This document shows, in pieces, positions 21,532 to 22,252 of a stretch of DNA of 64,000 nt. Made by a program: the position numbers and the translations under genes. The notes below the pieces were generated by a model. That model made no database searches and was not told the DNA's origin. It was given only the letters and a program-made list of their open reading frames with translations. Each line of letters starts with the position of its first letter. Position 1 is the first letter of the stretch. Origin of the DNA: Escherichia coli (GTDB lineage: Bacteria > Pseudomonadota > Gammaproteobacteria > Enterobacterales > Enterobacteriaceae). The stretch lies in the NCBI RefSeq assembly GCF_003334315.1, contig NZ_QOWR01000004.1. One strand, given 5' to 3'.

Positions 21532-21659
21532 AGCTTTAATCCTTATTGTTGATGCTTGTTGTGCCTGAAAATCAGGCGATTCGTCGTTTTAGTAAACAGT
21601 ACGAACAGATAAACGGTTATTATAATCAACCTGGCTGTGAGTAGCTATAGTTGCCAGGT

Positions 21660-21740
21660 CCGACCGGAGCAGGCTGCGGCAGGGGGGGCGCTTTTCCCCT
21701 CACCCTAACCCTCTCCCCAGAGGGGCGAGGGGACCGTATT
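21660..21740. repeat. GC-rich imperfect palindromic element (cccctcaccctaaccctctcccca/gaggggcgaggggac)
   Basis: Read from sequence; inverted CCCCTC...GAGGGG arms; family not assigned; approximate coordinates. Confidence 0.5.
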
Positions 21741-21898
21741 GTGCAAATATTGTTACCCCAGCAACAAACAGGCTCATACAGCCCCTAACCCTTTCATGGC
21801 GATGGCTGGGACGGTTCAGACCTTGCCGAATATTCTCCAGCACCGTCTCCATGTTTTCACCACAACAGCTATTCGGCTCGGTCTGCCCCCTCGCTCTT

Positions 21899-22252
21899 TC
21901 AGGGAGAGGGTGACCGGCGGTTCAGTTCCTGCAGAATATGCTCCAGCACCGTCTCCTCATTACAATCAATCTCGTTATTCCAGAAACGCAGCACGGTCCA
22001 GCCCTGCGACTCAAGCCAGCTAGTGCGCCTGGAATCATAGGCAACTGCTAAATCATGCTGCCCACCATCCAGCTCAACGACTACACGCGCCGAGCAGCAA
22101 GCAAAATCGAGAATGTAGCTCCCCACTGGATGTTGACGGCGAAATTTGAAATCACTAAAACGTCGGCTGCGAAGATATCGCCAGAGCTTTCGTTCCTGCA
22201 AAGTGAGATTGCGTCTTAAATCACGCGCATTTGATTTTATTTTATCCATCAC
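21899..22252 (-). CDS. ycjD: DUF559 (Vsr-like endonuclease fold) protein YcjD, 117 aa
   Basis: ORF track; size and position between fabI and sapF. Confidence 0.8.
   Translation of the reverse strand: MMDKIKSNARDLRRNLTLQERKLWRYLRSRRFSDFKFRRQHPVGSYILDFACCSARVVVELDGGQHDLAVAYDSRRTSWLESQGWTVLRFWNNEIDCNEETVLEHILQELNRRSPSP

Follow-up and report, generated by a model that had tools for sequence, protein, structure and literature searches.

Introduction

Box C, also called PIT or TMECO, is a short repeat that has been known in Escherichia coli for about 30 years, and for which we know of no function, origin or associated enzyme. It is said to have been first noted near envM (fabI) by Bergler et al. 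in 1992, and Hoyne and Maher reportedly devoted a paper to the Box C/PIT repeat of E. coli in 2000. Here we analyse the region between fabI and ycjD, the gene of a small Vsr-like nuclease of the DUF559 family, in 64,000 nt of an E. coli chromosome (contig NZ_QOWR01000004.1 of assembly GCF_003334315.1; this whole stretch is called the window below), in which three elements of this repeat family stand next to ycjD, and we compare it with the surroundings of YcjD-type genes in other bacteria.

The repeat was named successively Box C, PIT (potential intrastrand triplex) and TMECO (Holder et al. 2015, PMC4666352), and its motif has also been treated as a G-quadruplex/hairpin switch, HPGQ (PMC5100583). 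A member is 34-37 nt long and consists of three blocks, one C-rich and two G-rich, separated by two short loops. We refer to the blocks as boxes A (CCCTCACCC), B (CCCTCTCCC) and B' (GGGAGAGGG); B and B' pair as a hairpin, to which A can add the third strand of a triplex, and in vitro the consensus folds into an intrastrand triplex that is stable (PMC4666352). The K-12 genome has 23 copies with five inverted pairs, which always combine one type A and one type B element, and the commonest type carries a conserved mismatch in its stem (PMC4666352). According to the same work, Box C loci are unusually variable among E. coli strains, with 29 copies in strain 55989 and one in IHE3034, Enterobacter asburiae has 143 copies and Salmonella none, and no mobility functions are found near the elements. 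Tests by Maher's group, summarized by Holder et al., revealed neither promoter nor terminator activity (PMC4666352).

Box C resembles the repeat of the REP/RAYT system (also described as REPtron or REPIN-RAYT; PMC2817692), a short GC-rich palindromic sequence present in tens to hundreds of copies, either single or in inverted pairs. REP, however, is a simple hairpin with a GTAG head, whereas Box C has three triplex-capable boxes, and RAYT is an HUH/Y1 transposase. DUF559/YcjD, in turn, has long been grouped with Vsr among the PD-(D/E)XK nucleases (PMC1189080). On balance, our analysis favours the view that the fabI-proximal end of the ycjD locus is the right-hand end of a YcjD (DUF559) cassette with three Box C copies, and that the nuclease acts on the repeat or mobilizes it. 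We put forward more tentatively the wider proposal that YcjD-type DUF559 nucleases are dedicated partner enzymes of Box C/PIT triplex-motif repeats, in a phylum-spanning system similar to REP-RAYT.

Box C elements and a tandem duplication at the 3' end of ycjD

An earlier note on this DNA had pointed out a GC-rich imperfect palindrome between fabI and ycjD, a diverged copy of roughly the last 60 nt of ycjD, and a second palindromic motif, CCCCCTC...GAGGG, at the ycjD stop. Both palindromes are present, at 21696-21731 and 21886-21910, and, together with a third one inside the diverged copy, they belong to a single known repeat family, Box C/PIT/TMECO. The features concerned are:

21696..21731, minus strand: intact Box C/PIT/TMECO element, type A, one stem mismatch (identical to TMECO no. 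9)
21747..21850, minus strand: unit 2 of a duplication, with a non-coding copy of the last 15 ycjD codons, a decayed Box-C-type element and a 35-nt spacer (alignments)
21782..21810, minus strand: decayed Box-C-type element of unit 2, CCCAGCCATCGCCATGAAAGGGTTAGGGG (alignment with E69 and FDAARGOS_1288)
21851..21956, minus strand: unit 1, with the true ycjD 3' end (codons ETVLEHILQELNRRSPSP and stop), a Box-C-type element and a 35-nt spacer (alignments)
21886..21910, minus strand: Box-C-type element at the ycjD stop, CCCTCTCCC-TGAAA-GAGCGAGGGGG (allele alignment)
21899..22252, minus strand: ycjD, 117 aa, Vsr-like DUF559 nuclease (Pfam, NCBIfam and PDB matches)

The first palindrome, CCCCTCACCCTAACCCTCTCCCCAGAGGGGCGAGGG (21696-21731), reads CCCTCGCCCC-TCT-GGGGAGAGGG-TTA-GGGTGAGGGG on the minus strand and is inverted relative to the two ycjD-proximal elements. 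It conforms to the published consensus, being identical to TMECO no. 9 (K-12 positions 1,351,239-1,351,204; Table 1 of PMC4666352), one of the 23 K-12 copies. Its 23-nt core occurs once in the window against none expected (100 shuffles). Across 5426 complete E. coli genomes, each genome had the 66 nt around it at a median of 17 places and at no more than 30; we detected 19 Box C copies in the K-12 records, and E. coli plasmid records contained Box C at 36 places and ycjD-like sequence at five. Chance similarity in GC-rich low-complexity sequence might be suspected, since the boxes are runs of C and G and the folding of single elements is unexceptional. The shuffle controls, the exact match to a published repeat, its dispersal within genomes and its conservation across the 5426 genomes nevertheless refute this explanation, and we give it practically no weight.

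Self-alignment of the locus confirmed that the diverged copy is related to the ycjD end, and showed that the two lie head to tail: on the minus strand, unit 1 (21956..21851, 106 nt) abuts unit 2 (21850..21747, 104 nt). Because the copies abut exactly, 21747-21956 is a two-unit tandem duplication. Local alignment of the copy with the ycjD end gave a score of 60, compared with 14.5±2.2 and a maximum of 30 in 2000 shuffles, and a repeat search paired 21812-21850 with 21918-21956 (87% over 39 nt) and 21782-21805 with 21887-21910 (75%). The copy described earlier is therefore real but is longer than the 60 nt or so ascribed to it, as part of a tandem repeat of 104-119 nt, and the suspected footprint of duplication is a genuine duplication of the ycjD 3' end. 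Tandem Repeats Finder (TRF) reported no array in the window, because divergence and gaps between its copies have gone too far; in L007, an Escherichia allele in which decay is less advanced, it reported a period of 119 nt, 1.9 copies and 79% matches.

Two points went beyond the earlier note: the element at the stop is itself coding, and the duplicated unit contains an element. The DUF559 domain of YcjD stops at residue 111 of 117, and the last six codons (residues 112-117) and the stop, TGA at 21899-21901 in the loop, lie within the Box-C-type element; the tail and stop of YcjD are therefore read from the repeat. The tail is RRSPSP in the window and RLSPSPQPSP in the long form of the protein. 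We aligned the alleles of the window, K-12, FDAARGOS_1288, in which ycjD is 12 nt longer, and the divergent Escherichia E69 and E1V33. In undamaged alleles ycjD ends ...TCACCCTCACCCCAACCCTCTCCC-TGAAA-GGGCGAGGG, and this intact element, when reverse-complemented, is TMECO no. 10 except for the second loop. Published Box C elements, in contrast, are purely intergenic and come without a gene (PMC4666352), whereas here one copy forms the coding 3' end of a nuclease gene.

The window copies at 21886-21910 and 21782-21810 share the three-box plan, but the first block is deleted in both, so that the three-block pattern is not found in either. In unit 1, a 12-nt deletion that runs from one ACCCTC repeat to another, and so lies between boxes A and B, has removed ACCCTCACCCCA. 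In unit 2, 13 nt are missing at the equivalent position, and the stem of its element has mutated as well; the counterpart in E69 and FDAARGOS_1288 reads TCACCCTCACCCCAGCCCTCTCCCTGAAAGG.... As the first block has been deleted, and alleles L002 and L007 retain all three, we regard both as decayed members of the Box C family. E69 and FDAARGOS_1288 also have the full element in the second unit, which means that the duplicated unit comprised the last 15 codons, a Box C and the 35-nt spacer, 118/119 nt in all; intact units of this length are present in L002 and L007. Escherichia sp. E1V33 has a single unit, which suggests that the duplication originated inside the genus Escherichia but is older than the split of E. 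coli from the E69 lineage. The K-12-type lineage would have lost both first boxes afterwards, presumably by slippage between the near-identical C-rich boxes. The earlier suggestion of recombination is borne out in that the region is a hot spot of recombination and instability, as seen in these 12-13-nt box-to-box deletions and in the alternation of the segment with an 8-kb eefRABCD island (see below), and such local deletions and replacements fit the variability published for the family (PMC4666352).

The ycjD-end copy could alternatively be all that is left of another DUF559 gene, once in tandem with ycjD and otherwise deleted. Tandem DUF559 genes do occur elsewhere: L052 (Gastranaerophilales) has two, at 3001-3333 and 4048-4383, about 700 nt apart and with three-box elements near each. 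The copy, moreover, still translates to ETVLENIRQGLNRPS, against ETVLEHILQELNRRS in YcjD. However, besides the exact junction of the units, the similarity spans the 35-nt spacer to the unit ends and then stops, no DUF559 similarity is found upstream of the copy, and TRF reads the intact allele as little short of two full periods. Furthermore, no fewer than ten other loci have a tandem array of repeat units directly after the DUF559 gene (L020, for instance, has 59 nt x 5.8), and the recurrence of such arrays indicates that the duplication in the window is typical of these modules. We therefore rejected the remnant explanation as very unlikely. One of these arrays (78 nt x 7.1, Box-C-type units, positions 3366-3919) is in L022, a record titled Chryseobacterium sp. 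(CACSKA010000005.1) that is 80-84% identical to Enterobacter loci over about 5.8 kb; since the locus aligns with Enterobacter, the label or the assembly is probably wrong. A 50-codon open reading frame in the window (METVLENIRQGLNRPS..., 21700-21852, minus strand) is merely unit 2 translated on into Box C, and is not a gene.

The earlier note also considered the palindromes as termination sites. As terminators or RNA-stabilizing hairpins, they would bring the sap-ycjD transcript to an end and keep fabI insulated, and this function would be the reason why they look alike; the elements do lie between two genes on the same strand, and an Enterobacter element pair folds into a joint hairpin of -66 kcal/mol (z = -7.3). 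Single elements, however, fold no better than shuffled sequences (z about -0.8), so that thermodynamic folding alone does not pick them out. A promoter and terminator scan found no site coinciding with any of the three elements, none of which precedes a T run, and the published assays were negative (PMC4666352). The inverted copies upstream of genes in other phyla (see below) and the dispersed copies would also be left unexplained, and we consider termination highly improbable. The lone terminator-like site in 21650-21960, at 21770-21784 on the minus strand, lies just past the unit 2 element and consists of a weak 5-bp stem followed by GTTTGTTGCT. An Rfam scan of 21400-22400 at a permissive threshold returned only chance microRNA-type matches on the hairpin next to sapF, and nothing on the Box C elements.

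Three-box repeats at YcjD-type genes in other bacteria

Taking one genome per species, we scanned with YcjD as the query protein and with search patterns that excluded the tail, and obtained 80 loci (44-92% identity) from Enterobacteriaceae, Alphaproteobacteria, Xanthomonadales, Gastranaerophilales and other taxa. A strict three-box pattern matched 107 times no further than 150 nt from the genes (2.08 per kb), 23 times at distances of 151-700 nt (0.28 per kb) and once in all the rest, 323 kb (0.003 per kb); the background density is thus about 700 times below that next to the gene. In 52 of the 80 genes an element lies on the stop codon, without exception oriented as A-B-loop-B' on the coding strand. 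At loci outside Enterobacteriaceae, a copy in the inverted orientation (B-loop-B'-A') is common 3-95 nt upstream of the start codon, which makes units of inverted copy, gene and copy about 420-520 bp long (417-516 bp in 13 clean cases). Flanks that are inverted and lineage-matched were seen in these 13 strict cases, and in 42 of the 80 loci on a looser criterion. When the copy upstream of a gene is compared with the one downstream of it, they agree at 90% and in many cases have identical loops; copies from different loci agree at 69% (permutation p < 2e-4). The third box covaries with the stem: CCCTCTCCC/GGGAGAGGG is accompanied by CCCTCACCC, and CCCTCCCC/GGGGAGGG by CCCCCACCC. The association of gene and repeat is oriented and lineage-matched.

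The homologues have similar 3' ends at the DNA level, CCCTCACCCC-nn-CCCTCTCCC-loop-GGGAGAGGG, in genes whose proteins have diverged to about 50% identity. The frame in which the motif is read varies by lineage, the proteins ending in ...PSPRPSP, ...PSPNPLPRGEG or ...PHPNPPPQGGRE, which argues for a constraint on the nucleic acid rather than on the peptide. In about 25 homologues from Enterobacteriaceae the stop codon is a TGA or TAA in loop 1. The layout in this family is gene, type B element, spacer and inverted type A element; this is also the layout of the E. coli window, where the duplication has stretched it.

A search with the domain only, the tail being left off, against 1.84 billion cluster representatives (50% identity) found 24,626 relatives. 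Among the best 144 of these, a three-box peptide signature was present in 31 C-terminal tails, compared with 0.08 in shuffled tails, and in 19 it was present in an over-called N-terminal extension. The gene between inverted copies was DUF559 in every unit examined, across distant phyla, and the only domains found in the flanked gene were DUF559 and MTES_1575, and not that of an IS200/IS605-type HUH (Y1) transposase.

The distribution of the gene also resembles that of the repeat. Nearly all of the best 120 proteins in a protein search were from Enterobacteriaceae, and YcjD homologues occur in Escherichia, Enterobacter (including E. asburiae), Kluyvera, Leclercia and their relatives. No homologue from Salmonella was among the 80 best loci or, for those members that are named, among the 120 best proteins. 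In a sample of 60 E. coli genomes, those with ycjD had 15-28 detectable Box C copies and those without it 1-17, many of them 1-4.

Units and free Box C copies at different sites

The unit is discrete and is found at different sites. In the Xanthomonadales loci L051 and L057 it lies between an upstream gene, X, and the gene for the acyl-CoA carboxylase alpha-subunit, and in L082 between the acyl-CoA carboxylase gene and an HMG-CoA lyase gene. The neighbouring genes are collinear, homology breaks about 10-20 nt from the inverted copies, and each arrangement shows the empty site of the other; the joints are not exactly placeable because the flanks are only about 73% identical. In Enterobacteriaceae, the gene is found between sapF and fabI (Escherichia), between hemW and yggM (Enterobacter group) and between cysP and a Dyp-type peroxidase gene (Kluyvera group). 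Between these three contexts, similarity is limited to the gene (about 70%) and its two elements (90-95%).

Box C copies without the gene also vary in their presence. Between pstB and pstA, K-12 copy no. 19 is absent from other strains (L094, positions 168-262, compared with L096 and L097). The difference of 92 nt is bounded by 8-nt direct repeats, AACCGTGT, and a third such octamer lies inside it, right after the element; it may represent either a target-site duplication or a deletion between repeats. Two other candidate pairs of filled and empty sites were rejected. The yjdP-phnP alleles proved to be deletions between C-rich boxes, and no target-site repeat was evident there. At tktB-ypfG the alleles are Box C versus REP: in this spacer (L003, positions 1500-1560, compared with L086-L088) some E. 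coli have a Box C and most have one or two REP, from which it follows that the two repeat families replace each other at the same spot.

In four of the five K-12 pairs, the arrangement is inverted copy, 18-29-nt spacer and copy, that is, the frame of a DUF559 gene without the gene. The pairs L090 (K-12 ygfF-gcvP) and L091 (downstream of alx) have in common a 29-nt spacer and, on the outside, about 15-20 nt of flanking sequence (ttttc..., ...gactgnccgag), which suggests a composite repeat of about 125 nt. We infer that free Box C copies behave as gene-less derivatives of the unit.

A candidate enzyme for Box C

YcjD matches Pfam PF04480 (DUF559) over the whole domain (residues 4-111, E=2.4e-49), the NCBIfam equivalog PRK09767 (267 bits, cutoff 218) and PDB entry 3HRL, a solved 'endonuclease-like protein' (E=1e-27). 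The nuclease is probably active, because it retains every residue that is at least 90% conserved in the family, including D49, E60, D62 and H66 (D...ExDG..H). Vsr, whose fold family is also that of DUF559 (PMC1189080), nicks beside a mismatch, and a stem mismatch is conserved in the commonest type of Box C.

These features can be combined in a model for the cassette. The ycjD gene runs into a Box-C-type element, from which it takes its six final codons and a stop that lies in the hairpin loop; gene end, element and 35 nt have been duplicated in tandem; and an intact Box C in the opposite orientation closes the module about 165 nt upstream of fabI. The Vsr-like nuclease may recognize the folded element, as a hairpin or a triplex and often with the conserved stem mismatch, and nick it, and through host replication and repair the nick could lead to copying, to loss or to amplification on the spot. 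The small deletions would come from slippage of one near-identical box against another. We regard this as the most economical scheme, and a similar one has been proposed for REP-RAYT systems. Single and paired Box C elements without a gene would then be non-autonomous derivatives spread or kept by YcjD, as REP is by RAYT, and the tandem duplications, box-to-box deletions and segment replacements at the locus would be by-products.

Such a system would share with REP/RAYT a gene that is present once and stands between inverted copies of the repeat variant of its host (in E. coli, both copies are 3' of the gene) and the phyletic co-occurrence of repeat and gene. However, the enzyme here is a Vsr-like PD-(D/E)XK nuclease of about 110 aa, and YcjD is not of the RAYT family, because it belongs to the wrong enzyme class. 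Miniature inverted-repeat transposable elements and insertion sequences offer another likeness, in terminal inverted repeats of about 35 nt, gene-less derivatives and discrete insertions at different sites. They differ in that the sole gene here is a DUF559 nuclease, with no DDE or other known transposase and no consistent target-site duplication, and in that the Enterobacteriaceae layout puts both elements on one side of the gene. Unlike Vsr, YcjD is not linked to a cytosine methyltransferase, and unlike Vsr-like homing endonucleases it sits in an intergenic cassette, not in an intron, intein or conserved target gene.

Several observations weigh against a role of YcjD on Box C. The role is argued from association and analogy, and a 117-aa PD-(D/E)XK nuclease alone cannot integrate DNA. 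Neither the 13 clean units nor the filled and empty sites of Xanthomonadales showed a consistent target-site duplication. Enterobacteriaceae, including the window, have no inverted copy upstream of the gene, both elements being 3', so that a simple terminal-inverted-repeat picture fails there, and the loss of a box from both gene-proximal elements of the window makes the local module look decayed. The 80 loci are the nearest relatives of YcjD and not the whole DUF559 family, with its 24,626 cluster representatives. Finally, E. coli genomes that lack ycjD keep up to 17 Box C copies, and the contrast in copy number between genomes with and without ycjD is confounded with phylogroup and only suggestive.

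These points lend some weight to an alternative in which YcjD is a passenger. Another enzyme, or accidents of replication and repair, would spread Box C, which would pile up at similar DUF559 ends by insertion or gene conversion, while the nuclease would have an unrelated role, for example in mismatch or restriction-type repair. Of the K-12 Box C copies, 22 of 23 are not adjacent to ycjD. The retention of copies in ycjD-negative strains, plain slippage between boxes as a sufficient account of the yjdP-phnP alleles, and the failure to find a target-site rule are also in line with a passenger. But a cargo gene would be expected to vary, whereas a DUF559 gene occupies every inverted-copy unit examined, in distant phyla and between flanks that match down to the loop; repeat density falls about 700-fold away from the gene; and the phyletic pattern of the repeat tracks that of the gene. 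We therefore consider it rather unlikely that YcjD is a passenger, and suggest, by analogy with RAYT, that it acts on Box C or mobilizes it.

The Box C copy, the alternation of ycjD with eef and the 12-nt indel at this locus are already known. The tandem duplication, the ending of ycjD inside a Box C and, above all, the framing of YcjD-type genes by the repeat appear to be unreported in the open-access literature searched, in which we found no paper linking DUF559/YcjD to any repeat. For the locus itself, a YcjD cassette would be a tidy explanation of an intergenic oddity by fabI, and the association with one small nuclease family provides a directly testable hypothesis for Box C. If correct, it would account for the origin, patchy distribution and genome instability of a repeat family that has been without a gene since the 1990s, and explain why Box C numbers differ among E. 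coli phylogroups and are zero in Salmonella. It would also add a new enzyme class to the few bacterial partnerships of repeat and enzyme, and give a role to a very large family, DUF559, with more than 24,000 sequence clusters.

The sapF-fabI locus

The remaining features of the locus, in which sapF (22320-23126), ycjD and the essential gene fabI follow one another on the minus strand, are:

20743..21531, minus strand: fabI coding sequence, flanking the module downstream (open reading frame; 100% identity to annotated FabI)
21655..22319, minus strand: sapF-fabI segment that alternates between strains, here in its ycjD form (allele comparison; PMC12817139)
22249..22293, no strand assigned: perfect 19-bp inverted repeat with a 7-nt loop, directly after sapF (repeat search)

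Of the 5426 complete E. coli genomes, 3378 carry ycjD, in every case as a single copy, and 2048 lack it. In the ycjD-less genomes examined (O157:H7-type), the segment from 21655 to the sapF stop is swapped for an island of about 8 kb, eefRABCD/MFS, and the window and the island allele are homologous only up to 21654 in the direction of ycjD from fabI, and up to the sapF stop at the opposite end. The alternatives at this site are thus a 0.66-kb ycjD module and an 8-kb TetR/RND/outer-membrane/MFS island, eefRABCD (L004, positions 829-8844). The passages on ycjD in PMC12817139 report both this alternation and the 12-nt difference in ycjD length, and make no mention of the repeats or the duplication. 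PADLOC matched no defence-system protein family.

The inverted repeat at 22249-22293 is the left edge of the ycjD cassette and is not a Box C element. Its proximal arm covers the ycjD start codon and the likely ribosome-binding site, and within the repeat the promoter scan gave, on both strands, a weak sigma-70-like match. A hairpin related to this repeat, ACCTCATCCTGA...TCAGGATGAGGT, is found in the allele with the eef island, and in the O157:H7 record examined the RND permease gene of the island is frameshifted.

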